Source: a virus
Length of the DNA: 36,935 nucleotides
IMG/VR virus record: IMGVR_UViG_3300038859_000015
Location: 1-36,935 of that record
Direction: 5' to 3' (one strand)
Shown here: positions 2,899 through 36,935 of the stretch, in pieces
Layout: each line of letters starts with the position of its first letter
Position numbering within the stretch: position 1 is the stretch's first letter
Translations under genes and position numbers: made by a program
The notes under the pieces: model-generated
Database searches by the model: none
What the model was told of the DNA's origin: nothing
Seen by the model: the letters and a program-made list of their open reading frames with translations, nothing else

Positions 2899-2900
2899 GA

Positions 2901-3331: not shown

Positions 3332-3357
3332 AATACACCTCCAGTCATTTAGACTTA

Positions 3358-3381
3358 GTGAAAGAGCGGCCGAAGCCGCTC
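3358..3381 (-). terminator. intrinsic terminator/attenuator after the major capsid gene
   Basis: Minus strand reads GAGCGGC-TTCG-GCCGCTC (7-bp GC stem with a UUCG loop) followed by TTTCAC, 10 nt after the coat stop codon. Confidence 0.6.
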
Positions 3382-3391
3382 AGGTTAGGGA

Positions 3392-4660: not shown

Positions 4661-4685
4661 TGCTAAGCTCCTCTATTTAAGTTAG

Positions 4686-5591: not shown

Positions 5592-5679
5592 TTCAGACTC
5601 CGTTAATTAACTCACCCACTAAAGCGGCTGGGTGGTTGGCCGCGTTCAACTAAGTATCGGATTTGGACTCAATACTCAG

Positions 5680-7734: not shown

Positions 7735-7736
7735 AA

Positions 7737-9481: not shown

Positions 9482-9570
9482 ACTGCCATGCTCCACAATG
9501 GTAGGTTAATCGAATTCACATGCTTGGGATTATGGCGCGCGAAAACGATTCCGTACACACGATTTATGGC

Positions 9571-10071: not shown

Positions 10072-12159
10072 ATGGCAAGACGTAATCGAACAACTGACCA
10101 TAAGGCGCAGGGCCTGGGCGAGAAGAAACTCGCTACCTCTGGTCTCACTATGGATGATGCTAAACTGCTTCACATGCAGTGCTTAGGCAGTCAACAAACC
10201 TCACGGCTTCACCCCTCATTCAAGCAGCTTTGCTCGCTCAAGATCTCATACTTAGGGCCAGATGGTGAGCCCCTCCCAGACTGGCATGAGGCCGATCCTT
10301 TCTATCGTCTTCGCTATTTAGAAACCCCTACTGATTTCGATGCCGTTACCCAGAAGAAGCCGGTCCGCTACGTGCAGGCACCCAATACTGCTCCCGTGGC
10401 CTATTACCCACAGAACTTCGATGGTTGGGTGGACCTGTGCATGAACCCTGATGAGCCGTTGATCATCACTGAAGGCGAGCTCAAGGCCGCCAAGGCGTGC
10501 AAGGAAGGGTTTCCCACACTGGGTTTGGGTGGCGTGTACAATTGGCGTAGCAACCGCCTTGGTATAGAGTGGCTGCCATCACTGGCGCCCATTGAGTGGC
10601 GGAAGCGGAACGTCTACCTCTGCTTTGACTCCGACTACAAGACCAACCCCATGGTGTGCGCCGCCTTAAGAGACTTTGCCAATGAGCTACAACGGCGCGG
10701 CGCGTTCTGCTACTTAGTGGCCCTGCCGCAGCTTCCTGGTCTCGATAAAATCGGTCTTGATGACTTCCTAGTTCATGCTGGCCCATCGGCGAATGAAATG
10801 TTCAGAGAGCTTTTGACACTGGCTGAGCCGTTAGGGCTGGCAGCACCGCTGTGGGAGTACAACAAACGGTACGTGTACATCCGGAAGCCCGGTCTCGTGG
10901 TTGACCAACAGGACATGGAGAACAAGGTCTCACCTGGCGCCTTTAAGGATCACCTTGAATCAACAGCTAATTATCAAGAACGGCAGATTAAGGCCGATGG
11001 TAGCATCTCATTTAAGGCCGTCTCCGCCGCCGGTGCTTGGTTGAAGTGGCCACTCCGTTTAGAGGCCATGCGGCTAACATACGAGCCAGGTGACGAGCGA
11101 TTCACTAAGAAGAACGAGCTGAACACCTGGCCGGGTTGGGGGTGCGAGGCGAAGGCCGGGAAGGTTGAGCTGTTCCTTAAGTTGTTAGAGCATCTGTTCA
11201 ACGGCACGGAACCCGAGGCAATGCAGTGGTTTCTCAGATGGTGCGCGCAACCGTTGCAGACCCCTGGGATCAAGATGTTCAGCTCAGTCGTGATTCATGG
11301 TATTAAGCACGGTACAGGTAAGTCGTTGGTCGGTTACACCTTGGCCCGGATCTACGGCAAGAACTTTACCGAGATCAACCAGATGGACCTGCATAATAAT
11401 TTTAATGAGTGGGCCGAGTCCAAGCAGTTCGTGATGGGTGATGACGTCACTGGTTCAAACAAGCGGCAGGATGCGGACTTCTTGAAGAAGATGATTACCC
11501 AGAAAGAGCTCAGGATCAATGCCAAGTACACCCCCAGCTACGTTGTCCCTGACTGCATCAACTACTTCTTTACCTCCCAGCACCCGGACTCGTTCTTCTT
11601 AGAGGACGATGACCGCCGGTTCTTTATCCATGAGGTGTTGGTGGGGCCGCAGGACGAGGAGTTCTACACTGACTACATGGGATGGCTTGAAAACGGCGGG
11701 GCTGAGGCGGTGTTCGATTATCTGCTCAAACTGGACCTTGGTGACTTTAACCCTGCGGCCCCAGCTTACCGCACTGCGGCGAAGGAGCGGATGATTAACA
11801 CTGGCCGTTCCGATCTCGGGTCATGGGTCCGTCAGCTGATCGCCACCCCTGATCAGGTGCTTCGAGTCGGGGACGTAGTGTGCGATAAGGACCTGCTGAC
11901 CTCGAAGGAGTTGCTGTTGTATTATGATCCTGAAGGCCGAACTGGTACCACGGCCAACGGCTTGGGACGGGAGCTGTCACGGGCAGGGATCCGCCAGGTA
12001 AGTGACGGGAAGCCGATCCGTCTGCCTGATGGGTCACAAGCCCGGTACTACGCCGTCAGGAACGCGGACCAGTGGTTGACGGCGCAGCCGCAGGCTTTGG
12101 TGAGTCACTTGACTGGGGATGAGAAACCCACACGGCGGAAACGGCGTCGAAAGTATTGA
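10072..12159 (+). CDS. bifunctional primase/helicase: N-terminal Toprim-like domain plus SF3 (D5/P4-type) helicase (695 aa)
   Basis: Toprim-like LIITEGELKAAKA...LCFDSDY. Walker A GIKHGTGKS, Walker B FVMGDDV, and a D5-type C-terminal region. Confidence 0.8.
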   Translation: MARRNRTTDHKAQGLGEKKLATSGLTMDDAKLLHMQCLGSQQTSRLHPSFKQLCSLKISYLGPDGEPLPDWHEADPFYRLRYLETPTDFDAVTQKKPVRYVQAPNTAPVAYYPQNFDGWVDLCMNPDEPLIITEGELKAAKACKEGFPTLGLGGVYNWRSNRLGIEWLPSLAPIEWRKRNVYLCFDSDYKTNPMVCAALRDFANELQRRGAFCYLVALPQLPGLDKIGLDDFLVHAGPSANEMFRELLTLAEPLGLAAPLWEYNKRYVYIRKPGLVVDQQDMENKVSPGAFKDHLESTANYQERQIKADGSISFKAVSAAGAWLKWPLRLEAMRLTYEPGDERFTKKNELNTWPGWGCEAKAGKVELFLKLLEHLFNGTEPEAMQWFLRWCAQPLQTPGIKMFSSVVIHGIKHGTGKSLVGYTLARIYGKNFTEINQMDLHNNFNEWAESKQFVMGDDVTGSNKRQDADFLKKMITQKELRINAKYTPSYVVPDCINYFFTSQHPDSFFLEDDDRRFFIHEVLVGPQDEEFYTDYMGWLENGGAEAVFDYLLKLDLGDFNPAAPAYRTAAKERMINTGRSDLGSWVRQLIATPDQVLRVGDVVCDKDLLTSKELLLYYDPEGRTGTTANGLGRELSRAGIRQVSDGKPIRLPDGSQARYYAVRNADQWLTAQPQALVSHLTGDEKPTRRKRRRKY

Positions 12160-12779: not shown

Positions 12780-13508
12780 ATGAAGGAGACTTACTCACAC
12801 GAATTTAATTGGTGGCAGAAAATTGTTTCTATACTAACCACTATGTGGCGCATCAATAAGGATTCTATAGATTTTAAATGGGGATATTTCGCACCTCGGT
12901 TTGGTTTCGAATTTATGGTTCACCGCGGTGGATATTTTGATCAGCATTATGCCATCAGTTGGTGTTTGATCTGGGGCCAATTTCATATTAAGGTTCCATT
13001 CAAAACCCGAATTCCTGGGTCATGTGATACTCCCAACTACGGCATTCAAATTCACAACAATACCTTTTGGCTTCACCTTGGTGGGAAAATGAATGATTGG
13101 GAGCAGTGTGATTCTAAGTGGATCACTTGGGACTTACCGTTCTTTAGTTGGATTCATGATCTCCATCAGGTCTGGACTGGTAAGAAGTGGGTCAACCCAG
13201 GTGGCGAGTATTCTGAACCCTATAGCGATGGACGATTAGTAGAAAAACACCAATACATCTATGTCCTCAACTCCGGTGAAATTCAAGACCGAATTGCCAC
13301 CTGCTATATTGAACGGCGTATCTGGCATCGGAAGTGGTTTCCATTTTTTGAAATGGTTCGCATCTCCTTAAATATCGATTTTAATGATGAGGTAGGCGAA
13401 GAAACCGGGTCCTGGAAGGGTGGCACTGTTGGCTGTGGCTGGGAAGTGGAACCTGATGAAACTATAGAACAAGCTTTGCGACGTATGGAAGCTATCAGAA
13501 AATTTTAA
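12780..13508 (+). CDS. Trp-rich orphan protein (242 aa) in a low-GC patch
   Basis: Long intact ORF with an AAGGA RBS. Hand-counted GC is 35-40% in 12781-12900, against about 60% in 12301-12360. No family recognised. Confidence 0.65.
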   Translation: MKETYSHEFNWWQKIVSILTTMWRINKDSIDFKWGYFAPRFGFEFMVHRGGYFDQHYAISWCLIWGQFHIKVPFKTRIPGSCDTPNYGIQIHNNTFWLHLGGKMNDWEQCDSKWITWDLPFFSWIHDLHQVWTGKKWVNPGGEYSEPYSDGRLVEKHQYIYVLNSGEIQDRIATCYIERRIWHRKWFPFFEMVRISLNIDFNDEVGEETGSWKGGTVGCGWEVEPDETIEQALRRMEAIRKF

Positions 13509-13517: not shown

Positions 13518-13847
13518 ATGGCAGAACTTACCCAAGAGCAAAAAGATTCAATTATTGAAAATCACCCCCTATATTCGGTATATCGTGCTGCGATTGAGCA
13601 AGCAGCATTCGGTAAGGGTGAGCGACATGGTGGGTGTGAGACCCCATTCTTAGATCAGCGTTGGAAACGAATTGCTGATGGACTGTGCGGACCACGAGGT
13701 CTCGCCTTTCAGGCCATTAAAAAGCTTGAAGAGGCGCTTGATAAACCAGATAAAGAGAGCTTTGAGCGGGAGCTGCTGGGTGCTATGGTCTACATGGGAA
13801 TGATTCATATCACTGAAATGGGCGTTCAAGGTGACAACACCGTTTGA
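13518..13847 (+). CDS. hypothetical protein (109 aa)
   Basis: Intact ORF with a GAGG RBS. The helical GKGERHGG...FLDQRWKRIADGL pattern is only vaguely reminiscent of small all-alpha phage NTPase-like domains. Confidence 0.5.
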   Translation: MAELTQEQKDSIIENHPLYSVYRAAIEQAAFGKGERHGGCETPFLDQRWKRIADGLCGPRGLAFQAIKKLEEALDKPDKESFERELLGAMVYMGMIHITEMGVQGDNTV

Positions 13848-14109
13848 GGTCCTGAACCTTCCTACTACTGCCACCGCTGATGAGATCAAGTCCCGTTGGC
13901 GGGAACTGGCGGGCACTCACCACCCCGATCGTGGGGGTGACGCCACTACTTTTCACACTATGCGCCAGGCCTATCAGGCCGCACTGAAGCTCGCTGACCG
14001 CCCTAAAAAGTGCCCTGAGTGCAACGGGGCCGGGAAAATCCAACAACGCTCTGGGTTTCATACCATCATGGTAATGTGCCCAACCTGTAAAGGAGCAAAA
14101 CGTCAATGA
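13831..14109 (+). CDS. J-domain (DnaJ-like) protein with a CxxCxGxG-type zinc finger (92 aa)
   Basis: PFEVLNLP...ADEIKSRWRELAGTHHPDRGGD contains the HPD tripeptide. The C-terminus is CPECNGAG...CPTCKGAK. GTG start. Confidence 0.8.
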   Translation: MTTPFEVLNLPTTATADEIKSRWRELAGTHHPDRGGDATTFHTMRQAYQAALKLADRPKKCPECNGAGKIQQRSGFHTIMVMCPTCKGAKRQ

Positions 14110-14993
14110 AACCTATGCTTGCTGCCGCGACCGACGGCACAAATCTTTCTTATCCATTGCTCGCCTCGCCAAAACTCGACGGCATCCGTGCCCTGGTCAT
14201 TGATGGCGTGGTAGTTAGCCGCTCATTGAAGCCGATCCCAATGAGCACGTGCAGCGCATCTTTGGACACACCATGTACAACGGGCTTGATGGTGAGCTCA
14301 GTGGGCGACATGACGGCACCGGATGTCTTCAATAAAACCACCTCGGGTGTCATGAGCCGTGAGGGCAGCCCTGACGTGACCTATTATATCTTTGATGACT
14401 TCACCGATTCTGAGCTACCATTTAGAGAACGGCTTATCAGTGCCATTGAACGAATCACTCAGACCAAGGGGAAGTTTCATCAGTACTTCGCACCAGTGGG
14501 GCACGTGATCATTGATAACCACGAAGAACTTGACCAGTCAGAGAACAATGCCCTGCGCATGGGCTTTGAGGGACTGATGACCCGTGATCCTGAGGGTCAA
14601 TACAAGCACGGGCGCAGTACCTTGAAACAGGGCTGGTTGCTGAAGCTAAAACGGTTTGAGGACTCAGAGGCTGAGATCATCGGGTACCAGCAGCTGATGC
14701 ACAACACCAACGAGGCCAAGAAGAACGAGCTCGGCTACCAGGAGCGCTCTTCCAAGAAGGCGGGTAAAGAGGGCAAGCCCATGATCGGGGCCATTAAGGT
14801 GCGTGATCTAAAGACCGGGGTGGAGTTTGACATCGGCACCGGCTTCGATCGGAAGCAGCGACGGAAGCTGTGGCGCGGGCGTGAGTTTCTGAATGGAAAG
14901 ATCGTGAAATACAAGTACCAGCCCACTGGCATGAAGGACAAGCCGCGGTTTCCAGTGTTCTTGGGCTTTCGTGACACGAGGGACATGTCGTGA
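14106..14993 (+). CDS. ATP-dependent DNA ligase (295 aa) with an internal frame-scrambled segment covering motif III
   Basis: Motif I SPKLDGIRA, motif IV EGLMTRD and motif V WLLKLK are in frame. The expected motif III (LDGEL) is encoded only in the -1 frame at 14240-14299. Confidence 0.8.
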   Translation: MKPMLAAATDGTNLSYPLLASPKLDGIRALVIDGVVVSRSLKPIPMSTCSASLDTPCTTGLMVSSVGDMTAPDVFNKTTSGVMSREGSPDVTYYIFDDFTDSELPFRERLISAIERITQTKGKFHQYFAPVGHVIIDNHEELDQSENNALRMGFEGLMTRDPEGQYKHGRSTLKQGWLLKLKRFEDSEAEIIGYQQLMHNTNEAKKNELGYQERSSKKAGKEGKPMIGAIKVRDLKTGVEFDIGTGFDRKQRRKLWRGREFLNGKIVKYKYQPTGMKDKPRFPVFLGFRDTRDMS

Positions 14994-16075: not shown

Positions 16076-16274
16076 GCCTTGTAGTTCTACGTCTTCAGAA
16101 CCGGCTCTGCCCAGACCCGCTAGCGCGAGGTATCCGGTCTCAAGTAGTAACTGCCAACACAGCCTGATCTAGGATAGAGGTTATGGCGCCGTACAGACGG
16201 CAAAGGCGAGGAGTAGACAGCGGGTGGTCGCTGCCAATCCCACACCAACTAACTTAACTCTGAGGACAAGTAAC

Positions 16275-17084
16275 ATGTCACGTAGAACTCGTAAATCTAG
16301 TTCAAAAGAAGTCGCCACCTGGGATGAGGAGCTCGCCAAACAGGCGGAGGTCGCCGCGTCCATGGAGGCTGTCGCTGGCGGTGGTCAGTTCTTCTCTACC
16401 AAAGGTGGTCAGCTTTCCTGGCAGGACGCACCACTCCCTGATAATGAGATGGCGGTTGTGATTCTTGACCACATCTTCGAGACCGTCTATTACGAGGGTC
16501 GTTACGATCCTGATACCCCGCAATCACCCACCGCCTTTGCCTTTGGTCGTGATCAGGATGAGTTGCGTTGGCACGAGAACTCTGATCCTGAGTTTGCTGG
16601 CGAGCTTTGCGCCGACTCTGAGGTCTGTGAGTGGGGATCAGCTGACACCGGCAAGGGCAAAGCTGCACGTGAGACCCGTCGCCTGGCGATGATTCCAGCT
16701 GGTCAGTTCAATCGTAACGGCGAGTTTGAGCTGTTCGATGAACCTGATCACTACGCCACCACGACTGTGGGCTTCATGAAGTTGCCAGTGACGTCAGTCA
16801 AGGGCTTTGCCAACTTCGTGAAGCAGGTGGCAGGTGCGTTGAAGCGCCCACCGTTCGGGATCATCGCCCGTGTGGCTGTGGTACCCGACGCGAAGACACA
16901 GTTCAAGGTTACCTTTGAGGTTATTGACAAAGTGCCTGATGAGTTGATGGGTGCCATCATGCAGCGTCGTGAGGAGGTCATGGAGATCATCGACTTCCCG
17001 TATCAGCGCGATGACGAGGAGGCTGAACCAGCACCAAAGCGTGGCGCGAAGAAGCCTGCCCGTCGCAGCCGTCGTAAGTACTAA
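16275..17084 (+). CDS. hypothetical protein, possible ssDNA-binding/recombination accessory protein (269 aa)
   Basis: The ATG at 16275 with a GAGGA RBS is preferred to the track start at 16224. Basic C-terminal tail KRGAKKPARRSRRKY. The functional call rests on position only. Confidence 0.6.
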   Translation: MSRRTRKSSSKEVATWDEELAKQAEVAASMEAVAGGGQFFSTKGGQLSWQDAPLPDNEMAVVILDHIFETVYYEGRYDPDTPQSPTAFAFGRDQDELRWHENSDPEFAGELCADSEVCEWGSADTGKGKAARETRRLAMIPAGQFNRNGEFELFDEPDHYATTTVGFMKLPVTSVKGFANFVKQVAGALKRPPFGIIARVAVVPDAKTQFKVTFEVIDKVPDELMGAIMQRREEVMEIIDFPYQRDDEEAEPAPKRGAKKPARRSRRKY

Positions 17085-17329: not shown

Positions 17330-17514
17330 TGCAATCAACTCATCTACAAGGTTCAGAGGAAGTACAACGTGCCGCTAATCAGATGGTGGCAGCTGCAGAA
17401 CAGATTACCCGGGCAGTTAACCAATTTGATTCTACCATTGAACGACTCGCCGTTATTGCACAACAATTTGAAGACTCAGTTGAACGTCTAGTTATGGACG
17501 AACCTACAGTATGA
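17329..17514 (+). CDS. hypothetical protein (61 aa)
   Basis: The ATG overlaps the upstream TGA, and the stop overlaps the polymerase ATG (ATGA). Confidence 0.5.
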   Translation: MQSTHLQGSEEVQRAANQMVAAAEQITRAVNQFDSTIERLAVIAQQFEDSVERLVMDEPTV

Positions 17515-19436
17515 GACAACCTAAGCCTGTCACCATTGACTTTGAGACCTTCGGTATTGAGGGTCGTCCCAAGTACCCACCTATCCCAGTTGGTGTCTCC
17601 ATCAAGGTGTGGGGTCGCAAGTCCAAGTACTACGCCTTTGGCCACCCGACTGAGAACAACTGCTGTTGGTCGGAGGCCGCATCCGCCCTTGAAGAGGCCT
17701 ACCAGTGCGAGGACGGGGTGCTCTTCCAAAACGGTAAGTTTGATGTTGATGTGGCGGAGGAGTGGTTCGGTCTTGCGGTACCTGAGTGGGGCAAGATCCA
17801 TGACACCATGTTCCTGTTGTTTCTTGATGACCCCCACCAGCGTGAGCTCGGCCTAAAGGAGGCGGCAGCACGACTGCTCGACTGGCCCGCTGAGGAGCAG
17901 GATGCCATCGGTGAGTGGCTCATTGCCAATCAACCAGTACCAGGGGTCAAGATCAGCAAGAGCAAGTCCAGCGAGCACTACTTCGGCCGCTACCTCTGCT
18001 TCGCGCCAGGCAAGCTCACCGGCGCCTACGCCAACGGTGACGTGGACCGCACCGAGGGGCTGTTCAAGTTGCTCTGGAAGAAGACCCGGGATCGTGAGAT
18101 GCTTGAGCCCTATGATCGCGAGCGGCGTCTCATGCCCATCCTGCTTGAGATGGAGCGTCAGGGATTGCCTGTTGACCTGGATCGGTTGCGTGCCGATGTT
18201 GAGAGCTACAGCCAGTGGCGCGAGCGGTTAAATGAGTGGCTCATTGAGAAGCTGCAGTGTGGTCCTGGCATCAATTTCAACTCCGGGCAGCAGCTCTTTA
18301 AGGCCATGCTCGAGGCGGGTTTGGTTGATGAGGCCAAAGCACCACTCACTCCCACCGGGAAGTACCAGACCAACAAGGAGGCACTGCTCGTCGCGGTCAA
18401 TGATAAACAGCTCCTGGCCGTGCTCAAGTACCGCACCCAACTGAACACCTGCCTCAATACGTTCATGGCGCCGTGGCTGCACACCGCTGAGCAGTCAGGC
18501 GGGCTCATCTTCACCAACTGGAACCAGGTGCGGTCCCCCAAGGGCGCGGACAACGCCGGCACCAGAACGGGACGGCTGTCCTCCACCCCCAACTTCCAGA
18601 ACATTCCCAATGAGTTCAAAGCGATCTTCAAGCACGACACCGCCGATCGCAAGCTGCGACGCGGACTGCCAAGGTCGCCATTTGATGACCTACCACCGCT
18701 GCCCAAGGTGCGGAGCTACATTGTGCCGTTCCCTGGCGAGATCCTGATCGATCGTGATTACAGCCAACAGGAACCGCGAATCCTCGGTCACTTTGATGGC
18801 GGACAGATCTTGGAAAAGTACCAGGCCGACCCGTGGATTGACTTCCATGACTCCGCCAAGGAGGAGCTGGCCAAGGTCGGTAAGCACTACGAGAGGAAGC
18901 CGGTAAAGAACACCAACCTCGGCATCATCTACGGCATGGGCGTCGGGAAGATGGCCGAGAAGAACGACATGGCGGTGGATGAGGCGAGCGCCCTGAAGAA
19001 GGCCATCCTGCTGCTCTATCCTGGCATCAAGGAGATGTACCGTGACATGAAGGCGCGAGCGGCCAACAAGCTGCCCATCCGCACCTGGGGCGGGCGGGAG
19101 TACTACTGCGAGGAGCCGAAGCTGGTGCAAGGTCGTCTCCGCCACTTTGATTACAAGATGGTGAACGTGCTGATTCAGGGCTCCGCTGCTGACTGCACCA
19201 AGGAGGCAATCATCCGCTACCACGCGGTGAAGCACCCGTCGTCGAAGATCATTCTCAACGTGCATGATCAGATCACTGCCTCGATTCCCAAGCGGATCCT
19301 CAAGAGCGAGATGCAGGTGCTGCGTGAGACCATGGAATCGGTTGAGTTTGACGTGCCCATCCTCAGTGAGGGCGACATCTCTGATACCAACTGGGATGAA
19401 CTTAAAACATACGACAAGAAAGGAGTAATTCAATAA
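17511..19436 (+). CDS. polA: family A DNA polymerase with 3'-5' proofreading exonuclease domain (641 aa)
   Basis: Exo I TIDFET, Exo II NGKFDVDV, Exo III YANGDVD. Motif A DRDYSQQEPRIL, motif B RKPVKNTNLGIIYGMG, motif C NVHDQI. Confidence 0.9.
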   Translation: MRQPKPVTIDFETFGIEGRPKYPPIPVGVSIKVWGRKSKYYAFGHPTENNCCWSEAASALEEAYQCEDGVLFQNGKFDVDVAEEWFGLAVPEWGKIHDTMFLLFLDDPHQRELGLKEAAARLLDWPAEEQDAIGEWLIANQPVPGVKISKSKSSEHYFGRYLCFAPGKLTGAYANGDVDRTEGLFKLLWKKTRDREMLEPYDRERRLMPILLEMERQGLPVDLDRLRADVESYSQWRERLNEWLIEKLQCGPGINFNSGQQLFKAMLEAGLVDEAKAPLTPTGKYQTNKEALLVAVNDKQLLAVLKYRTQLNTCLNTFMAPWLHTAEQSGGLIFTNWNQVRSPKGADNAGTRTGRLSSTPNFQNIPNEFKAIFKHDTADRKLRRGLPRSPFDDLPPLPKVRSYIVPFPGEILIDRDYSQQEPRILGHFDGGQILEKYQADPWIDFHDSAKEELAKVGKHYERKPVKNTNLGIIYGMGVGKMAEKNDMAVDEASALKKAILLLYPGIKEMYRDMKARAANKLPIRTWGGREYYCEEPKLVQGRLRHFDYKMVNVLIQGSAADCTKEAIIRYHAVKHPSSKIILNVHDQITASIPKRILKSEMQVLRETMESVEFDVPILSEGDISDTNWDELKTYDKKGVIQ

Positions 19437-20808: not shown

Positions 20809-21170
20809 ACCCCGAGACCAAGATTGAGCTGGAGGCCTGTGACCTGGTGTGGAAGCACCTAGGAATCGAGGGCTCCAAGTTGCAGATCACTGGTGACAAC
20901 GGCTATCCGGACCGGATCTTCTGGCTGCCAGGTGGTCACCCACTTCTTATTGAGTTCAAGTGCCCAGGTGAGGAGCCTAGGCCAAAACAACTCCATATCC
21001 ACAACCAGCTCCGTGGGCTGGGTTATGAGGTACAGGTACATGACAACGCAATTACCGCTTTTCAGGCAGTCATCGACGCCGTGGGAGCCACACGACTACC
21101 AAAAGACGGCCGTAAAGTTCTTGCTCGAGCACGCCGCCGCTGCGCTGTTCTTAGATCCGGGGCTGGGTAA
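20805..21170 (+). CDS. VRR-NUC domain nuclease (121 aa)
   Basis: GYPDRIFWLPGGHPLLIEFKCPGEEPRPKQ matches the PD...ExK...Q pattern of VRR-NUC. Confidence 0.75.
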   Translation: MNPETKIELEACDLVWKHLGIEGSKLQITGDNGYPDRIFWLPGGHPLLIEFKCPGEEPRPKQLHIHNQLRGLGYEVQVHDNAITAFQAVIDAVGATRLPKDGRKVLARARRRCAVLRSGAG

Positions 21171-22515
21171 GACCTCCATCACTCTTGCTGCTATTAAGCT
21201 ACTTAAGCGGAAGAAGGTACTGGGTAAGGTATTACTGATTGCCCCACTTCGTGTCTGTCACTCAGTTTGGCCCAATGAGATCAGTAAGTGGCGAGACTTT
21301 CGTCGTCTTAAGGTGGTGGTCCTTCACGGTCCCAATAAGGACGAGCTGCTGAAGCAGAAGGCGGACATCTATGTCATCAACCCTGAGGGGCTCGATTGGT
21401 TACTTCAGGTCAAGAAGGAAAAGACACCAAGCGGCAAGACCCGGGTCAGCGTTGACCTGAGACGGTGGAAGTCACTGGGCTTCGACACCCTGGTCATCGA
21501 TGAGCTATCAAAGTTCAAGCACACCAACACCAACCGCTTCAAGGCCATGAAGCTGGTGTTGCCTACCTTTGCCCGGCGCTGGGGTCTTACCGGCTCACCC
21601 GCTTCCAACGGGCTCATGGACCTGTTTGGTCAGTGCTACATCCTGGATCAGGGCAGAACATTGGGTCAGTACATCACCCACTACCGCATGACCTACTTCG
21701 ACCAAGGTCATGACGGGTTCAGCTGGACCTTGAAAGAAGGTGCTGATGAGGCCATCTATGAGCGGCTTCGTCCACTTGCCCTACGCATGGGCGATGACCT
21801 GCTTGACATGCCCAAGGTGGTAGAGAACAACATTAAGATCGCGCTGCCTGATAAGGTCATGAAGATTTACGACGCAGTCGAGGACGACCTGGTGGCGAAG
21901 ATTGATGAGGGCATCATCACTGCCAAGACAGCTGCCACGGCCAGCATGAAGTGTCGTCAGATCGCTAATGGTGGCATCTATCTCGACCCGGAGGTACAGG
22001 CCCTGGTGAAACTGCCATCGACCAAGAAGGAATGGGTTGACCTTCATGAGGCCAAGTTGGATGCCCTGGAGGAGCTTGTTGAGGAGCTGCAGGGGTCACC
22101 GTTACTGGTGGCCTATGACTTCCAACACGATCTGGAGCGCATCAAGAAGCGGTTTGGCAAAGACGTACCCTTTATCGGTGGTGGTGTCTCAGTGAAGCGT
22201 TCAACCGCCTTAGAACAGGCCTGGAACCGCGGTGAGCTGCCCATCCTGTTTGGCCACCCGCAGTCCATGGGGCACGGGTTGAACTTGCAGGAGTGTGGTC
22301 ACCACGTGGCATGGCACTCGTTGACCTGGGACTACGAACTCTACGACCAGTTCAACCGTCGGGTGCTCCGTCAGGGGAACAACGCCAAGCGGGTATTCAT
22401 CCACCACCTGATTGCTGAGGGCACCATCGATGAGGCCGTGTTCGGGGCCCTGAAGATGAAGCGCCGAGGTCAGAATGCTCTGTTCACTGCGCTCAAAAAG
22501 ATCAAAAAAGTTTGA
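21040..22515 (+). CDS. SNF2-family (SF2) helicase/ATPase (about 491 aa)
   Basis: DPGLGKTS (motif I), VIDELSKFK (DExx), HGLNLQ and RRVLRQGN (motif VI). ATG 21040 with a GAGGT RBS. The track start at 20893 lies inside the VRR-NUC gene. Confidence 0.85.
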   Translation: MTTQLPLFRQSSTPWEPHDYQKTAVKFLLEHAAAALFLDPGLGKTSITLAAIKLLKRKKVLGKVLLIAPLRVCHSVWPNEISKWRDFRRLKVVVLHGPNKDELLKQKADIYVINPEGLDWLLQVKKEKTPSGKTRVSVDLRRWKSLGFDTLVIDELSKFKHTNTNRFKAMKLVLPTFARRWGLTGSPASNGLMDLFGQCYILDQGRTLGQYITHYRMTYFDQGHDGFSWTLKEGADEAIYERLRPLALRMGDDLLDMPKVVENNIKIALPDKVMKIYDAVEDDLVAKIDEGIITAKTAATASMKCRQIANGGIYLDPEVQALVKLPSTKKEWVDLHEAKLDALEELVEELQGSPLLVAYDFQHDLERIKKRFGKDVPFIGGGVSVKRSTALEQAWNRGELPILFGHPQSMGHGLNLQECGHHVAWHSLTWDYELYDQFNRRVLRQGNNAKRVFIHHLIAEGTIDEAVFGALKMKRRGQNALFTALKKIKKV

Positions 22516-22593: not shown

Positions 22594-23046
22594 ATGACTA
22601 AACAAGCTGATACCGTTAAGATCTTCAAGCGGCGCGACTCCGCTACTGCGGTGCTTCGCAAGATGGGAATCAACTCCCGCGACTACGGCCTCTTCATTGA
22701 GAAGATGGAAGACGGCCGCTTTACCTGTCAGGTGGCCCTCGCTGAGGGGCATCTTGAATCTCTCAAAGAGCAGACCAAGCCAAAGCCCAAGAAGAAAGCT
22801 ACTAAGGTCAAGAAGGAGAAGCGGGTCACCATCTCCAGCCTGTGCCGTGACATGATCCTGGACGGTGCAGACAACGCTGCCATCTTCAAGGCACTGCAGG
22901 AAAAGTATGGTGAGGAGCGGTTCGGGCCAGAGAAACGCCACTATCCTGCCTGGTACCGTTGTGAGCTGCGTCGCAAAGGTGAGTTGCCACCGGCCTTTGA
23001 TCCCATCAACCAGGACCCTACTGCTGTTCACGTAGTGGAGGACTGA
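22594..23046 (+). CDS. hypothetical protein with Lys-rich linker and a C-terminal 'WYR' module (150 aa)
   Basis: First gene after a promoter. KPKPKKKATKVKKEKR linker. The C-terminus resembles that of the 23471-24091 product. Confidence 0.6.
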   Translation: MTKQADTVKIFKRRDSATAVLRKMGINSRDYGLFIEKMEDGRFTCQVALAEGHLESLKEQTKPKPKKKATKVKKEKRVTISSLCRDMILDGADNAAIFKALQEKYGEERFGPEKRHYPAWYRCELRRKGELPPAFDPINQDPTAVHVVED

Positions 23047-23252: not shown

Positions 23253-23502
23253 GAACATCAATATCCGCGACGAGAGCACCGATACCGAGAAGCGGTTTCA
23301 GTTCTACGTGGGTGATTGTCGTCGTGGTCTGGTCACAATGGGCCCAGATAGGCGAGTCAAATTTCACTGGCAAACTGCCGGCCCATCTCAGATCGAGGAG
23401 GCGCGCATCTGGATTCAAGGACTGTTGGAACTTTCAATGATTGCAGAACAACTAGAAGTGGAGGCCAAACATGGCAAGAAGAAAACGCGCCGGCGCAAGT
23501 AG
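23239..23502 (+). CDS. hypothetical protein (87 aa)
   Basis: ATG 23239 with an AGGAGG RBS. The track start at 23155 is upstream and in frame. Confidence 0.55.
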   Translation: MDRIENINIRDESTDTEKRFQFYVGDCRRGLVTMGPDRRVKFHWQTAGPSQIEEARIWIQGLLELSMIAEQLEVEAKHGKKKTRRRK

Positions 23503-24091
23503 CAAGGGCGTTTACCGGGACCATAACGGACGAACCTGTCTGCTGGTGAAGGATGGCGATGAGGTTGAGTTCATCCCGCTTGACATCTCAGAGGGCTTTC
23601 AGGTGCACACCACCACACGGGTGTCATTTGACAAGCGCTATCTACCCATGGTAGACTACCCGCTAGACAAGGCCGCTGCGCTGTATCTTAACTATGCCTT
23701 AGCGGTCGGCGCCAGTGAGGCGGTTGTTGAGCACTTGGCGCAGATCATTGAAGTGAGCACCATCGACCGTGAGACGATCATCTTAAAGCGGGCACCAACC
23801 AAAGTGGAGAAGCCAAAGCGGCAACGTAAGGTGAAGGATGCGCCCAAGGCACCTGACTCAACCACCAAGCGAAAAGCACGGCGGGCAGTGAAGAAAGCCA
23901 AGAACAGCTCAGGCTACCCATCTGCTGCTCAGATGTTCCAGGCACTGATCATGGCGGGTGAGCTCACTGATGATGAGATCTTCGCCCAGGTGCAGGCTGC
24001 CTTTGACCTCGAGGACAAGAAGCGCAGCTACGTGAAGTGGTACCGTAACAATTTAACTAAACAGGGGAAGAACCCACCGGAGGCAAAATGA
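23471..24091 (+). CDS. hypothetical protein with Lys-rich linker and a C-terminal 'WYR' module (206 aa)
   Basis: KVEKPKRQRKVKDAPKAPDSTTKRKARRAVKKAK linker. C-terminus ...IFAQVQAAFDLEDKKRSYVKWYRNNLTKQGKNPP. Confidence 0.6.
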   Translation: MARRKRAGASSKGVYRDHNGRTCLLVKDGDEVEFIPLDISEGFQVHTTTRVSFDKRYLPMVDYPLDKAAALYLNYALAVGASEAVVEHLAQIIEVSTIDRETIILKRAPTKVEKPKRQRKVKDAPKAPDSTTKRKARRAVKKAKNSSGYPSAAQMFQALIMAGELTDDEIFAQVQAAFDLEDKKRSYVKWYRNNLTKQGKNPPEAK

Positions 24092-24276
24092 AGTTAAGAT
24101 CCGCTGGCCAAGCAGTCGTTGACTCAGGTCTTGTCAATGAGGTTGGCCACAAGGGCGTCTTTGTACCAACCCCTCGCAAGGACCGAAACCGCCCGCAGTG
24201 CCATTTGCAGTACGTCCACCCATCTAACCTAACCAAGGAGAAGAATGATGCCAAAGACGCGTCAAGTGAAGCGTGA
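24088..24276 (+). CDS. questionable small ORF (62 aa)
   Basis: ATGA-coupled to the upstream gene and fills an otherwise 153-nt gap. It overlaps the methyltransferase start by 32 nt and has no recognisable motif. Confidence 0.3.
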   Translation: MKLRSAGQAVVDSGLVNEVGHKGVFVPTPRKDRNRPQCHLQYVHPSNLTKEKNDAKDASSEA

Positions 24277-25060
24277 TGAGCGCGATTTCGACACCACCCA
24301 ACTGAAGATGTCCGGCCACGGCCGCACGCTGCACCGGGACTACTCAGCCCACTTCTGGCGTTGGAGCTTTGCACGCCGCTTCATCACTGCCAAGGATTCA
24401 GTGATTGAGATCGGGTGCGGTGAGGAGAAGCCACTGAGCAAGATCCTGACCGGCGGTGCCGCTGCGCATGTTGATCGCTATGTGGGAGTGGATCTAAACA
24501 AGCTCAAGGAGTCAAAGTCGCAACGCTTGGACTTCTACGGTGAGGTTGATTTCACCAATCCACGTGTCCGTAAGAAAATCCTAGAGCAGCACGGTGAGTT
24601 CGACATCGCAGTGCACTTTGAGGTCATTGAGCACATGCAGGTGGCCAGCGGGCGTAAGCTGCTTAAGGGTTGCCTTGAAGCATTGAAACCAGGCGGCGTC
24701 ATGCTAATGTCCACCCCTGTCTACGATGGTAAGCGCCATGCCGCTAACCATATCCATGAGTACTATGCTGACGAGCTCCAGGAGGAGGTTGAAAAGGCCG
24801 GCTTCGTTGTTGAGCGCCGCTTCGGTACCTTCATGGACATCAAACACATTGGTAAAGCAGATACCGACCGTTGCTCAACCGAAGCCATCAAAGAGGTCTC
24901 TGACGCCCTGCGTGAGTACTTTGACAACGACGCCATCAGCAACATCTTCGGCCCGTTGTACCAGGACCACTCACGCAACAACCTCTGGGTTTGCCGTAAG
25001 CCAAAGGCAGCCAAGTCGTCACGCCGCAAGCGTCGCGCCAAAGATAAGGCTCCGTTCTAA
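24245..25060 (+). CDS. class I SAM-dependent methyltransferase, small-molecule/UbiG-like type rather than an obvious DNA MTase (271 aa)
   Basis: Motif I VIEIGCGEE, post-I VGVDL, HFEVIEHM and LKPGGVMLMSTP. No DPPY or PC-type DNA-MTase motif. AAGGAG RBS. Confidence 0.75.
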   Translation: MMPKTRQVKRDERDFDTTQLKMSGHGRTLHRDYSAHFWRWSFARRFITAKDSVIEIGCGEEKPLSKILTGGAAAHVDRYVGVDLNKLKESKSQRLDFYGEVDFTNPRVRKKILEQHGEFDIAVHFEVIEHMQVASGRKLLKGCLEALKPGGVMLMSTPVYDGKRHAANHIHEYYADELQEEVEKAGFVVERRFGTFMDIKHIGKADTDRCSTEAIKEVSDALREYFDNDAISNIFGPLYQDHSRNNLWVCRKPKAAKSSRRKRRAKDKAPF

Positions 25061-25551
25061 TGAGCAACTTCAACGATGTTAAAACCTTTCACAAGAAGTT
25101 CGGGCTGCTTAATGGCGATGCCCCTCGCCGCCTCACTGATCGTAAGCTCCAAGAGCGGATGGAGTTCCTCTTTGAGGAGTTTCGCGAGTTTGCCATGGGG
25201 TGCGGTTGCATCCTGACCGTCGATGGGAACCCACTGGATTACCCTGACGATCCATCCACTAAGGTCAAGTTCTATAAGATCGACGACCAGGACCTGGCTG
25301 AGCAGGCTGATGCTCTCATCGACCTGGTTTACGTGGCCATGGGAACAGCTGTGATGCTCGGTCTGCCGTGGCAGGAGCTTTGGGATGACGTGCAGCGCGC
25401 CAACATGGACAAGGAGCGCGGGGTTGGGAAGCGTGGTCACCCAGTTGATTGTATCAAACCAGAGGGCTGGGTCGGACCTAAGACCCAAGAGATCTTATTG
25501 ACCAGTGGCTATGATGAGTCAGCCGAGGAGGTGGACGATGAGATCAAGTAA
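25060..25551 (+). CDS. MazG/HisE-like all-alpha nucleoside triphosphate pyrophosphohydrolase (163 aa)
   Basis: FHKKFGL...RMEFLFEEFREFA...EQADALIDLVYVAMG matches the EExxE/D acidic helix pattern of this superfamily. Confidence 0.65.
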   Translation: MSNFNDVKTFHKKFGLLNGDAPRRLTDRKLQERMEFLFEEFREFAMGCGCILTVDGNPLDYPDDPSTKVKFYKIDDQDLAEQADALIDLVYVAMGTAVMLGLPWQELWDDVQRANMDKERGVGKRGHPVDCIKPEGWVGPKTQEILLTSGYDESAEEVDDEIK

Positions 25552-26437
25552 GCTTACCATCTTCGAGGGCCCTGATGGATCAGGCAAGACCACTGCCGCT
25601 GTCGAATACGCCAAGGCCACTGGTGCTAAGTACGTGCACTTTGCCAACCTACCGCAGGTTGGCAAGAACCTGGCACGAATGTACGTCGAGGCCATGCTGC
25701 CCGCGCTGCTCGGTTACCAGGGTGTGGTCTTCGATCGCTGCTGGCTCAGCGAGGTGCCTTATGGCACCGCCTTCCGTGAGGGGCAGGATCGTTTGGGCTA
25801 CGCCACCTGTCGGATGCTTGAACGACTTGCCATGCGGTGCGGTGCGGTGGTGGTGCACTGTCGCCCACCCTGGGCCAAGGTCAAGCAGACCTACCTCAGT
25901 CGCCGTGAGGAGGAGTACCTCGAGAACGACAACCAGCTCCGGGTGGTTTACGACCTGTATGGCAAGAACCGCACCGGGCTGCCTGAGCTGATGTACGACT
26001 ATACGGCGGAACCAGAACTACGCCCCATGCTGGTCGATGCCCTTCGCATGCCCCAACACCCGCTTGACGTCCAATCAGCTGGGAACTGGGGTGCCAGGAC
26101 GGTGCTGGTTGGGGAGGGGTTCGCCTACCAAAAGGACTGTGACGCCCTGTATCAGTGGCCATTCGCGTCGTTCAGCAAGTTGGGGTGCAGTCAGTGGTTG
26201 ACTGAGCAGCTTGGTGATCATGACGTTTGGGAAAAGGACCTGCTCTGGATCAACGCTGATCAGGACCTGTCCGTGCTCTATGACCTAGAACCAGAGCGTA
26301 TCGTGGCGCTGGGCAAGGAGGCGTGCACCCAACTTTATCGGTTGAAGATCATGGCAGCCACCGTGCCGCACCCGCAACATCACAAGCGCTTCAATATCAC
26401 GAAGCCCTATGAGCTCTTTGACTATATCGGAGGATAA
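25538..26437 (+). CDS. fusion protein: thymidylate-kinase-like dNMP kinase (N) plus UDG-superfamily fold domain (C), about 299 aa
   Basis: N-terminal part: IFEGPDGSGKTT P-loop and VFDRCWLSEVPYG (the Tmk DR motif). C-terminal part: VLVGEGFA...WPF...WL...IVALGK...VPHPQHHKR, matching family-4-like UDG motifs A (GEGPG...PF) and B (HPS..R). ATG 25538 with a GAGGAGG RBS. Confidence 0.7.
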   Translation: MRSSKLTIFEGPDGSGKTTAAVEYAKATGAKYVHFANLPQVGKNLARMYVEAMLPALLGYQGVVFDRCWLSEVPYGTAFREGQDRLGYATCRMLERLAMRCGAVVVHCRPPWAKVKQTYLSRREEEYLENDNQLRVVYDLYGKNRTGLPELMYDYTAEPELRPMLVDALRMPQHPLDVQSAGNWGARTVLVGEGFAYQKDCDALYQWPFASFSKLGCSQWLTEQLGDHDVWEKDLLWINADQDLSVLYDLEPERIVALGKEACTQLYRLKIMAATVPHPQHHKRFNITKPYELFDYIGG

Positions 26438-26439: not shown

Positions 26440-27231
26440 ATGACAAAAGATCTGCCCTACGTGTGGCTTGAGGCCATCAATGACATCTTAACCAACGGCG
26501 ATGAGGTAGCGCCGCGCGGCCAGTTAACCAGGGAGCTGCTGCAGCGAACCATGGTGGTGGACATGCGCCGTCCGGTACTGACTGTGCCACAACGAAAGTT
26601 GAGCTACCAGTTCATGGCCGCTGAGGCCTACTGGATTCTGACCGGTGACAATCGGGTCAGCACCATCGCCCCGTACAACAAGCACATCAGCCAGTTCAGC
26701 GATGACGGCGAGACCTTCTTCGGTGCCTATGGGCCCAAGATTATGTCGCAATTGCAGTACGTGGTATCGAAGCTGCTACTGGATCTCGACACCCGTCAGG
26801 CTGGGCTCACCATTTGGCGTGAGTGCCCACCTGCGACCAAGGACGTGCCGTGCACCGTAGCGGTGTTCTTTAACATTCGCAACAACAAGCTGAACTGCCA
26901 CACCTTCATGCGTTCATCTGATGTTTGGTTGGGGGTACCATACGACGTCTTCAACTTCAGCATGCTCAGTCACATGGTGTGCTGCTTGTTGAACGGTGAC
27001 CTCAACGCGGATGGCCCTATCACACCTGGTGATCTTCACCTAACCGCAGCCAGCTCCCACCTTTATGAGCGCAACTTCGAGGCGGCGCGTGAGTGCCTGA
27101 CCGCGGAGGTCCTGGATCAGCAGCTGACCCCGGAGGCGTTGTTTACAGACAGCGAGAAGTTCTCCAAGTGGTTGAAGGACCTGCGTGATACTAAACCTGG
27201 CACCACCTTTCTGCGCTGGTGGGAAAACTGA
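26440..27231 (+). CDS. ThyA-family pyrimidine-nucleotide C5 transferase. Predicted dCMP-specific (hydroxymethylase or methylase) rather than canonical thymidylate synthase (263 aa).
   Basis: Gap-free match of NKLNCHTFMRSSDVWLGVPYDVFNFSML to E. coli [28 protein letters not shown]. Catalytic Cys in DVPCT. Asp (26944-26946) sits at the Asn177 position, as in T4 gp42. Confidence 0.75.
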   Translation: MTKDLPYVWLEAINDILTNGDEVAPRGQLTRELLQRTMVVDMRRPVLTVPQRKLSYQFMAAEAYWILTGDNRVSTIAPYNKHISQFSDDGETFFGAYGPKIMSQLQYVVSKLLLDLDTRQAGLTIWRECPPATKDVPCTVAVFFNIRNNKLNCHTFMRSSDVWLGVPYDVFNFSMLSHMVCCLLNGDLNADGPITPGDLHLTAASSHLYERNFEAARECLTAEVLDQQLTPEALFTDSEKFSKWLKDLRDTKPGTTFLRWWEN

Positions 27232-27256: not shown

Positions 27257-27766
27257 ATGAGGCCGTCACGAGAGACCTGGGCCATGGGGTTAGCTCAGCT
27301 CACTGCCCAACGGTCTACCTGTTATCGTCGTCAAGTGGGGTGCGTGCTCCTGAATAGACGAGGCCACGTGCTATCGACTGGCTATAATGGGGTGGCCGCC
27401 GGGTTGCCTCATTGCAACCAACCAGAGCTGGTGCCAGTGGTTGAGAACCACCAACTGGCGGTGGAACATGACGTGCCGTTAGTGGCGGATAACAGAAATA
27501 TCTGCAGCGGCGCGCGGTCAGCTAGTGGCACCGATCTTGATGGGTGCCAGGCCATCCATGCCGAGCAGAACGCGTTGCTCCAGTGCGGCGACGTCCACCA
27601 GATCCACACCGCCTTTGTGACAGCGTCGCCCTGCATGACCTGCACCAAGTTGCTGCTTAACACAGCCTGTGAACGTATCATCTTTGTGGAGGAGTATCCC
27701 CACAATGAGGCGCAGGCTTTGTGGGAATCATCAGGTAGGAAGTGGTTAAAATTTGATCAGCTCTAG
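27257..27766 (+). CDS. dCMP deaminase (about 169 aa)
   Basis: HAEQNAL and SPCMTCTKLL zinc-binding motifs. N-terminus WAMGLAQLTAQRSTC. ATG 27257 with a GGGAG RBS. Confidence 0.85.
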   Translation: MRPSRETWAMGLAQLTAQRSTCYRRQVGCVLLNRRGHVLSTGYNGVAAGLPHCNQPELVPVVENHQLAVEHDVPLVADNRNICSGARSASGTDLDGCQAIHAEQNALLQCGDVHQIHTAFVTASPCMTCTKLLLNTACERIIFVEEYPHNEAQALWESSGRKWLKFDQL

Positions 27767-35440: not shown

Positions 35441-36935
35441 TTATGACCTTGAGCAAATCATCCTTGAATCAGTGACCTCATTATCCACACCGCCCATACC
35501 ATTTTCCACATAAATAACAAATCCCTCATCCTCCACGACATCGAGAATATCCACGACCTGTGAAGACAAGGGCACGCCGTTTCGAGCCGAGACGGTGGAA
35601 CCATTAGCATCACGGGTGGCAGCATACGAGGTGTCAGTCTTCATCAATACCGCTCGTACTGGGCTGTCAGCTCCTGATACCTTCTGCACGGTGACCCAGC
35701 CCTCAATGCTCAACGAGGTAGCTACCTCACCGGTGTACACAAACCAGCCCGACGCGCTGTCCCCCGTGGTGTGGCAGTAGTAGTTGGGCTCGGTACCGTC
35801 ATCAGTGAACTCAACTAATGTTGTAAGTCCACTGTCGGCGTACAGTTGAAAGGTGGTGGCAGTAACACTGCCGACGTAGTAAATGACCTTCTCCTGCAGC
35901 TCAGCGGGAAGGCCACCGTTCTCACGCAACTCGATCTTATCCCCATTAGCAAGACCGTGGTTGAACGCAGTCCCACCAGTGGCATCGATGGCGCCATCCA
36001 CTGCCGTACAGGTGTTGGTGGTGTTGTCAAAGGTCACCTTATCACTAAAGCAGATGCGCTCCTCAACATTTCCATCTGACCATAAGGTGTTAATCGGCGT
36101 TGGTACGTTAGGGCCAGACATCACAGTCACATCGGTGTTACCATCAAATTGCAGGATGCCTTTAATGGTTGAATCACTAACCGGCGGACAGTTGTCAAAG
36201 TCATATCGTTTATCGCCGCTTGAGATGTTCTCTAACGGGGTGACTCCGCCAATGAACTCGCAGTCACGTACAGTAGCAATAACTCCGGGGGCGATGTTTG
36301 CAGAATCCTCGTCCCCGGAAATACCAATTGCTCCAGAAGGTGCGACGAAAATGATATTATTGACTTCAAACACCTGGAAGGTAGCCCCTGGGTACTCTAA
36401 TCCCTTAAAAGCTGAGCTCGCACTTCCCAAAGCGAGACGGTTGATGGTAAGAACGGAAAAGTCCCCGATTAAGGTCAGTCCACCATCAAGCCCAAGAGAA
36501 AATGTTTCATCAACAGCTGATACAAACCCGCAATTAACGATCTGAAGGGTTTCAAGATCTGTAAAGGTGCCAAACTTTTGACTAATTTTTTCAAGCCCGG
36601 AGTCAGCAAAACCTCGTACATCTTGTATATAGACAATCGAATCAGAGCCAACATCAGAGAAGTTATAGATCTGATTAGCATTAGGCGCTGAAATGGCGTC
36701 CCACCGATGGCTAAATGTTCTTACGTCCACCCCAGTAAACATGTCCCCTGTCCCGGTGTAGATAAGTCGTTCACCAGCATCAAAGCTTTGATGCGTAAGA
36801 ACCACATTGGGCTCAACAATGAACCGCTTATCGGTAACGATCTCAGCACCGCGAACGTAGATCTTTCCCTCCTCCAAGGTGATTGTGTCCGCATCTTGGA
36901 CATTAAAGTCATCAAGTCGATTGATGCGAACAACA
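35441..36935 (-). CDS. tail fibre / second receptor-binding protein. Its 5' end continues at 100..125 across the junction (about 506 aa in total).
   Basis: Long ORF with beta-rich repetitive sequence. It stays open through 36935 and continues in frame to the ATG at 125 once the 99-bp overlap is collapsed. Confidence 0.7.
   Translation of the reverse strand, partial: VVRINRLDDFNVQDADTITLEEGKIYVRGAEIVTDKRFIVEPNVVLTHQSFDAGERLIYTGTGDMFTGVDVRTFSHRWDAISAPNANQIYNFSDVGSDSIVYIQDVRGFADSGLEKISQKFGTFTDLETLQIVNCGFVSAVDETFSLGLDGGLTLIGDFSVLTINRLALGSASSAFKGLEYPGATFQVFEVNNIIFVAPSGAIGISGDEDSANIAPGVIATVRDCEFIGGVTPLENISSGDKRYDFDNCPPVSDSTIKGILQFDGNTDVTVMSGPNVPTPINTLWSDGNVEERICFSDKVTFDNTTNTCTAVDGAIDATGGTAFNHGLANGDKIELRENGGLPAELQEKVIYYVGSVTATTFQLYADSGLTTLVEFTDDGTEPNYYCHTTGDSASGWFVYTGEVATSLSIEGWVTVQKVSGADSPVRAVLMKTDTSYAATRDANGSTVSARNGVPLSSQVVDILDVVEDEGFVIYVENGMGGVDNEVTDSRMICSRS
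36837..36935. repeat. 99-bp terminal direct repeat, copy 2
   Basis: Exact copy of bases 1-99. Confidence 0.95.

Follow-up and report, generated by a model that had tools for sequence, protein, structure and literature searches.

The locus described here raises the question of which pyrimidine nucleotide its thymidylate synthase homologue acts on, and what group the enzyme places on the base. The locus lies in a viral DNA of 36,935 nucleotides (IMG/VR record IMGVR_UViG_3300038859_000015, positions 1 to 36,935; hereafter the window), in which an open reading frame at 26440..27231 on the + strand encodes a 263-residue protein of the ThyA family that contains TKDVPCTVAVFFNIRNNKLNCHTFMRSSDVWLGVPYDVFNFSML. 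An earlier interpretation made without database searches (the sequence-only reading) had proposed that this protein carries Asp where thymidylate synthases have the uracil-specifying Asn, and that it prefers deoxycytidylate (dCMP) to deoxyuridylate (dUMP). Our analysis favours a deoxycytidylate 5-hydroxymethylase, in a phage whose cytosine would be replaced by 5-hydroxymethylcytosine (5hmC), perhaps modified further, and we give this reading a rough probability of 0.72. The gene and the codons on which the argument turns are as follows.

26440..27231, + strand: ThyA-family gene, predicted dCMP hydroxymethylase (synthase of 5-hydroxymethyl-dCMP, 5hmdCMP), assigned from Pfam, a PDB sequence match, AlphaFold2/Foldseek and NCBIfam

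26842..26844, + strand: codon for Asp135, at the position of E. coli Leu143, where an acidic residue has been reported together with a hydroxymethyl product (PMC13326640)

26851..26856, + strand: catalytic Cys138 (tgc, 26851-26853) followed by Thr139 (acc, 26854-26856), equivalent to E. coli Cys146-His147 by codon reading and alignment

26920..26922, + strand: codon for Asp161, at the position of E. coli Asp169, where Asn marks 5-hydroxy-dCMP synthases (PMC13326640)

26944..26946, + strand: codon (gac) for Asp169, equivalent to E. coli Asn177 and T4 Asp179, the pyrimidine-specifying residue, by codon reading and alignments

The query protein matches the Pfam family PF00303 (Thymidylat_synt) with an E value of 4e-24 (85.6 bits against a cut-off of 24.3). 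We aligned it using MAFFT with E. coli ThyA, T4 gp42, RB69 gp48, SPO1 gp29, MilA and the homologues from phages Xp15 and Xp12, and the prefix Ec below denotes a position in E. coli ThyA. Conservation was assessed in 45 homologues of 64-87% identity and in the 150 best cluster representatives (50%-identity clusters; 42-71% identity to the query) of a scan that gave 633 clusters with E <1e-30. The catalytic core (Ec Glu58, Tyr94, Cys146, Arg166, His207 and Tyr209) is intact in the query, and each of these residues is kept in no fewer than 147 of the 150 representatives.

The alignments run without gaps from the catalytic Cys to Asp169, placing this residue at the Asn177 position as the sequence-only reading had proposed, and in an alignment with ThyA, dCMP and dUMP hydroxymethylases and a dCMP-methylase candidate it falls in the pyrimidine-recognition position. 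Asp at Ec177 is invariant in the 45 homologues and present in 150/150 representatives, so that the canonical ThyA residue, Asn177, is missing from the query and from every representative. Across these alignments Asp169 is a character of the clade and not a chance substitution. Thr139 aligns to His147 of ThyA, again as anticipated, and Thr occupies this position in 143 of the 150 representatives. The earlier interpretation had placed a PCT motif at 26851-26856; the Cys and Thr codons are there, and the Pro codon precedes them at 26848-26850. The T4 gp42 motif quoted for comparison, MRSNDVVFGFRND, is correct.

Positions 177 and 147 are those that best separate the thymidylate synthase homologues of cytosine-modified from those of unmodified phage contigs in a metagenome association study (PMC8670742), and work cited in that study describes the change of Asn177 to Asp as sufficient to make thymidylate synthase a dCMP methylase, a switch from dUMP to dCMP. 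The published discriminator positions, the alignment and the fold described below all support the proposal that the substitutions of Asn177 by Asp and of His147 by Thr confer a preference for dCMP over dUMP.

The public annotations of the closest cultured relatives say otherwise. The homologues of Stenotrophomonas phage AXL3 (gp28; 4968-5777 of its locus) and Pseudoxanthomonas phage PW916 (3280-4098), both 57% identical to the query and matching it at every diagnostic residue, are labelled 'thymidylate synthase' and 'deoxyuridylate hydroxymethyltransferase', which would make the enzyme uracil-specific: either a true thymidylate synthase or a dUMP hydroxymethylase of the SPO1 type. The Pfam family fits such an enzyme, the local motifs YNKxxxQFSDDG, DTRQA and TKDxPC are common to the query and SPO1 gp29, and a neighbouring dCMP deaminase would provide dUMP. 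Ec177, however, is Asp in every member examined and Asn in both SPO1 gp29 and ThyA, and the query lies far below the cut-offs of all NCBIfam thymidylate synthase equivalogs (best scores 63.1 against 174.55, 62 against 108.35 and 61.5 against 327). Judged by these residues, the public labels of AXL3 gp28 and the PW916 homologue are in conflict with the Asp177/Thr147/Asp143 pattern. Together with the AXL3 data below, this makes a uracil-specific enzyme extremely unlikely. Some database annotators have already labelled close relatives of the query 'pyrimidine hmase'.

The fold agrees with the placement of Asp169 in the alignment. An AlphaFold2 model of the query built on the 45 homologues has a mean predicted local distance difference test score (pLDDT) of 90, and Foldseek matches it to 396 PDB chains at E<=1e-3, the top 50 of which are all MilA or thymidylate synthases. 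Seven chains of MilA, including dCMP and 5-hydroxymethyl-CMP complexes, come first (template modelling (TM) scores 0.79-0.80, E ~2e-19; 0.80 for the dCMP complex), and true thymidylate synthases rank after them (E ~1e-15). MilA is also the best PDB match by sequence (E 7e-19). In a rough neighbour-joining tree the query clade is placed with two hydroxymethylases, MilA as its neighbour and SPO1 gp29 next, and the Xp12 and AXL1 ThyA homologues branch next to E. coli ThyA. T4 gp42 falls in a separate clade of this tree and is 22-24% identical to the query (tblastn E 3e-5), and we consider the query to be a predicted functional analogue of T4 gp42 within the superfamily, not its ortholog.

What the enzyme adds to cytosine is indicated by the residues around the methylene. 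A bulky hydrophobic Leu143 has been associated with a methyl product and Asp or Glu at this position with a hydroxymethyl product (PMC13326640). The query has Asp at Ec143, as do 146 of the 150 representatives, and this points to a hydroxymethyl and not a methyl product. The remainder of the ThyA methylene shield is missing as well. The IWDEW region, which the sequence-only reading had been unable to find, reads HISQFSDDG in the query: Trp80 is missing, its place being taken by Ile or by a gap according to the alignment, and Phe stands where ThyA has Trp83. In addition, Ec147 is Thr, and the C-terminal extension is unrelated to that of ThyA.

The alternative product is a methyl group. Xanthomonas phage Xp12 has DNA in which 100% of the cytosine is 5-methylcytosine (5mC) (PMC7653180), and a dCMP methyltransferase of the Xp12 type would reduce the methylene with hydride from tetrahydrofolate, giving 5-methyl-dCMP and 5mC DNA. 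The sole ThyA homologue of Xp12 has Asp177, as the query does, and its gene shares a cassette with those for a pyrophosphatase and a dCMP deaminase, and the conversion of thymidylate synthase to a dCMP methylase by Asn177 to Asp alone, cited above, is in keeping with a methylase. The Xp12 protein is nevertheless nearer to E. coli ThyA than the query is (29% against 23% identity). It has Asn143, Pro147 and Leu165, and like its AXL1 counterpart it keeps the Trp80, Arg127 and ThyA-like C terminus that the query lacks. The ThyA homologue lies directly upstream of genes for the dCMP deaminase and dihydrofolate reductase (DHFR) in Xp12 (locus 3016-4834), and the arrangement is the same in AXL1 (7674-9564). 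Reductive methylation oxidizes tetrahydrofolate to dihydrofolate and hydroxymethylation does not, so a DHFR beside the Xp12 enzyme makes chemical sense.

The window's first 99 bases are repeated exactly at 36837-36935, which indicates that the assembly is circularly closed, or has a terminal repeat, and that the genome is ~36,836 bp (~36.8 kb) long. A six-frame tblastn search of this closed genome for ThyX, DHFR, a second ThyA and a T4-type glucosyltransferase gave nothing better than E 0.5. Asp177 together with Asn143/Pro147/Leu165, Trp80, a ThyA-like C terminus and linked deaminase and DHFR genes may be a usable signature of natural dCMP methylases, provisional because it is drawn from one phage with experimentally established 5mC, Xp12, and its close relative AXL1. 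Scored for Asp177, Trp80, the ThyA-like C terminus and an adjacent DHFR, the query shares only Asp177. With the query grouping among the hydroxymethylases in the tree, Asp at Ec143, and the restriction data for AXL3 given below, we regard a methylase as improbable.

A second alternative product is a hydroxyl group added directly to the ring. RB69 gp48 exemplifies newly found flavin- and O2-dependent 5-hydroxy-dCMP synthases, of which the change of Ec Asp169 to Asn is the mark (PMC13326640). Asp177, an acidic Ec143 and Thr147 are common to this enzyme and the query. Ec169, however, remains Asp in the query and in 149 of the 150 representatives, and is Asn in RB69 gp48 in the same alignment, which argues against a putative flavin-dependent function for the query. 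Identity to RB69 gp48 is only 24%, and sugar-nucleotide or glycosyltransferase genes were not found in the genome; we consider a 5-hydroxy-dCMP synthase highly improbable. The sugar of the substrate is suggested by two further positions: MilA prefers cytidylate (CMP) through Lys133'/Ala176, and Arg and Ser at these positions go with dCMP (PMC5175136). Arg119 and Ser159 of the query correspond to Ec Arg126 and Ser167, and point to a deoxyribonucleotide and not the CMP of MilA as the likely substrate.

Five tightly packed genes of the same orientation form a cassette, in which the predicted hydroxymethylase gene is the fourth. The other four are listed below.

24245..25060, + strand: class I S-adenosylmethionine (SAM)-dependent methyltransferase, UbiG/Hen1-like, with a basic C-terminal tail (Pfam Methyltransf_23 8e-14; PDB UbiG 3e-5; NCBIfam)

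25060..25551, + strand: MazG/PRA-PH-type nucleoside triphosphate pyrophosphohydrolase, predicted dCTPase (Pfam PF01503 2e-13; phrog_671)

25538..26437, + strand: two-domain protein of 299 residues, with an N-terminal P-loop deoxynucleoside monophosphate (dNMP) kinase and a C-terminal fold like that of family-4 uracil-DNA glycosylase (UDG; ~26030-26434) (AlphaFold2, Foldseek)

27257..27766, + strand: zinc-dependent dCMP deaminase (Pfam PF00383 2e-18; phrog_174)

We scored 80 IMG/VR loci by tblastn for these genes, counting only loci with enough flanking sequence. The dCMP deaminase is immediately downstream of the ThyA-like gene in 77/78 related loci and MazG is upstream in 64/69. Over the same 69 loci the methyltransferase is found in 55 (51-85% identity), the kinase domain in 44 and the UDG-like domain in 28. 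The cassette recurs in AXL3 and PW916, which have all five genes, in two Manatee Spring viruses, and in metagenomic contigs with different virion modules. In the modified contigs of the MetaGPA study, thymidylate synthase was likewise associated with domains of the PRA-PH and deaminase types.

The kinase–UDG fusion has homologues that begin at the ATG at 25538, and its AlphaFold2 model (pLDDT 89.7) is matched by Foldseek to YorR and thymidylate kinases (7e-7) and to T. maritima UDG and UdgX (~3e-5). The UDG-like domain gives individual matches to T. maritima UDG 1vk2 (2.6e-5) and UdgX 6iod, has conserved 'VGExF' and 'HPQ' motifs and has no Pfam match; the fusion is kept across homologues of ~300 residues, yet is missing from many related loci, as the count for this domain indicates. 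A 'putative DNA polymerase subunit' beside the thymidylate synthase homologue of phage Xp15 was considered as a relative of the UDG-like domain and rejected, the only shared stretch being the end of the kinase domain. In the dCMP deaminase, residues 6-144 match a Pfam profile of 102 positions, which indicates that ~40 residues are inserted after the N-terminal part and ahead of the HAE zinc motif; the best NCBIfam match, far below its cut-off, is an anti-phage dCTP deaminase.

Restriction of phage DNA provides evidence on the modified base. The DNA of AXL1, an Xp12-like phage, is partly cut by Eam1105I, which we take to be an isoschizomer of AhdI, and by KpnI. AXL3 DNA is cut by just 2 of 37 enzymes, TasI (AATT) and Tru1I (TTAA), both with A/T-only sites; it resists enzymes with G/C-only sites (HaeIII, HpaII/MspI, SmaI, NotI and ApaI) and is also uncut by Eam1105I, KpnI and XbaI (PMC7504290). 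Cutting at AATT and TTAA together with protection at G/C-only sites rules out a modification of thymine only, and so counts against a uracil-specific enzyme. The 5mC DNA of Xp12 is cut completely by AhdI (GACN5GTC) and KpnI, and the 5hmC DNA of T4gt resists both (PMC7653180); the resistance of AXL3 to Eam1105I and KpnI therefore argues against plain 5mC, the product of an Xp12-type methylase. AXL3 also encodes a separate ThyX, so that thymidylate (dTMP) synthesis does not require its ThyA-like gene, and the published AXL3 pathway from dCMP through dUMP to dTMP via gp28 is probably wrong for gp28.

A hydroxymethyl product is thus favoured over a methyl product by Asp at Ec143, Asp at Ec169, the loss of Trp80, the C terminus unlike that of ThyA, the lack of a DHFR gene and the restriction data of the relative. 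From the observed sequence, fold, residue pattern and gene linkage we infer the substrate, the product and the roles of the neighbouring genes as follows. The MazG pyrophosphatase would convert dCTP to dCMP, both supplying dCMP and excluding dCTP. Cys138 would attack C6 of dCMP, and Asp169 would hydrogen-bond to and protonate the N3/N4 face of cytosine, selecting dCMP over dUMP. The methylene of 5,10-methylenetetrahydrofolate would then move to C5, and water entering past Asp135 would capture the exocyclic methylene, giving 5hmdCMP and tetrahydrofolate. Capture by water in place of hydride reduction would be expected from the replacement of the ThyA shield (Trp80/Leu143 together with the closing C terminus) by an open acidic entrance at Asp135. 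The fused dNMP kinase would phosphorylate 5hmdCMP, starting its conversion to the triphosphate, and the dCMP deaminase would turn some of the dCMP into dUMP, on which the host thymidylate synthase would draw. Phage DNA made in this way would contain 5hmC in place of cytosine, possibly modified further, and would resist host nucleases.

Several points weigh against this assignment. Our literature searches found no assay of any enzyme of the clade, and the support comes from residue rules drawn from a handful of characterized enzymes. The Ec143 rule is a correlation, and not a clean one, because the Xp12 dCMP-methylase candidate has Asn143 and not a hydrophobic residue. T4 gp42 keeps Trp80, which shows that hydroxymethylation does not depend on the loss of this residue, and the query is only ~22-24% identical to T4 gp42. 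The restriction data are those of a 57%-identical relative and do not separate 5hmC from bulkier derivatives, nor formally from guanine modification. Finally, a plain 5hmC pathway leaves the linked methyltransferase unexplained.

This last point suggests an extension of the hydroxymethylase assignment in which 5hmdCMP is only an intermediate, and the SAM methyltransferase, perhaps with other cassette proteins, would go on to produce a hypermodified cytosine that is so far undescribed, for instance an O-methyl ether. This is a sub-case of the hydroxymethylase reading and not a competitor to it. Within the same phages the methyltransferase shows stronger conservation than the ThyA-like gene (67-70% against 57-64% identity). 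It accompanies that gene in most related loci (the 55 of 69 above), and among 50,697 phage records it is found only in the four phages with the cassette (AXL3, PW916, MW202621 and MW202510). It resembles the O-methyltransferases UbiG, juvenile-hormone acid methyltransferase and Hen1, in addition to having the basic C-terminal tail, and XbaI spares AXL3 DNA but partly cuts the 5hmC DNA of T4gt. The XbaI difference, however, could stem from the use of other enzyme brands and digestion times; the methyltransferase is missing from 14 of the 69 loci whose upstream sequence is long enough; and linkage leaves its substrate unfixed, such that the enzyme could instead methylate RNA, a host factor or a small molecule. 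A text search of a paper library gave no paper with methoxymethyl in the context of phage hydroxymethylcytosine, and a literature search for a pyrimidine hydroxymethylase with a methyltransferase and MazG returned nothing relevant. We therefore regard further modification by the methyltransferase as a tentative proposal. In its most specific form, which we hold to be conceivable but doubtful, the methyltransferase would produce an undescribed cytosine derivative such as 5-methoxymethylcytosine at the nucleotide or DNA level, and the kinase-fused UDG fold would be a pyrimidine reader or proofreader. If true, a large and environmentally widespread group of podoviruses and siphoviruses, including AXL3 and PW916, would carry a new DNA base.

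The remainder of the window places the cassette in its genome. A replication module on the + strand, which also includes exonucleases, contains the following genes.

10072-12159, + strand: primase/helicase

14106-14993, + strand: ligase

17511-19436, + strand: family-A polymerase

20893-22515, + strand: helicase

On the - strand lie the genes for virion structure and lysis: terminase, portal, scaffold, major head protein, a P22 gp7-like ejection protein, tailspike and holin. Searching a phage collection with the nucleotide sequence of the locus gave no relative, the sole match being a 32-bp chance match; relatives of the locus are detectable at the protein level only. Three proteins encoded on the + strand are common to the window and AXL3: 16224-17084 (gp43, 51% identity), 22594-23046 (gp34, 35%) and 23471-24091 (gp32, 41%). 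Pfam, PHROGs, PADLOC and PDB sequence searches with these three returned noise only. In both phages the genes for the latter two fall between those for the helicase and methyltransferase, and may for this reason belong to the modification module. Two other + strand genes are of note. The product of 12780-13508 has a nearly full-length Pfam match (PF25187, E 1e-47) to Acb3, an inhibitor of the cyclic-oligonucleotide defence CBASS, and 13831-14109 encodes a small protein with a DnaJ J-domain and a zinc finger, the AXL3 counterpart of which is gp60.

That ThyA homologues of the Asp177 type mark cytosine-modifying phages is already established (PMC8670742, PMC13326640). The routine label 'thymidylate synthase', applied even to the phage-therapy candidate AXL3, hides a likely rewriting of cytosine. 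A dCMP hydroxymethylase, if that is what these genes encode, would account for the near-total restriction resistance of AXL3 DNA. It also predicts that such phages are sensitive to modification-dependent nucleases, and methods that depend on cytosine chemistry may behave unexpectedly on their genomes. The clade is very large (the 633 clusters noted above) and includes soil, freshwater and marine viruses, and a single biochemical characterization would revise the annotation of thousands of genes. The linked methyltransferase and the kinase–UDG fusion are leads to possibly new chemistry, for which AXL3 and PW916 provide cultured models.

Among characterized enzymes, the closest solved relative by both sequence and fold is MilA, the CMP 5-hydroxymethylase of mildiomycin biosynthesis (5b6d, 5jnh and 5jp9). 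The two proteins have in common the active-site string D-V-x-C-T ... M-R-x-x-D ... D-V-F. They differ in that MilA has the Lys133/Ala176 pair of a ribonucleotide-preferring enzyme and the query the Arg/Ser of deoxy-specific enzymes, and in that MilA serves bacterial antibiotic biosynthesis and not a phage DNA pathway. The dUMP hydroxymethylase SPO1 gp29 is 29% identical to the query and resembles it in the three local motifs given above, in Gln at Ec127 and in the loss of Trp80. It differs at the positions expected to set specificity: Asn at Ec177, Ec147 and Ec165, which makes it uracil-specific, where the query has Asp, Thr and Met. Ec143 is Asp in the query, as it is in MilA, SPO1 gp29 and T4 gp42.

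The phage pathways can be compared in the same way. In Xp15 (1378-3021) a carbamoyltransferase gene lies two genes upstream of an Asp177-type ThyA homologue and a dCMP deaminase, a placement that fits a 5-carbamoyloxymethylcytosine pathway (PMC8670742). AXL3 and PW916 share the whole cassette with the window but are siphoviruses of ~47.5 kb, and AXL3 has the additional ThyX. The likeness to T4 gp42 (EC 2.1.2.8) extends over the ThyA fold, the catalytic Cys (T4 Cys148) followed by Thr, and the Asp at the Asn177 position (T4 Asp179), and further over Ec Glu58 (T4 Glu60), Tyr94, Arg166, Asp169, an acidic residue at Ec143 and a Met at Ec165. The genes that accompany it are of the same kinds as well, T4 gp56, gp1 and cd corresponding to the dCTP pyrophosphatase, dNMP kinase and dCMP deaminase. 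By contrast, T4 gp42 retains Trp80 and Arg127 where the query has a gap or Ile and Gln, respectively, and the C termini differ. T4 pairs its enzyme with glucosyltransferases, which are absent here, whereas the query is paired with a SAM methyltransferase.

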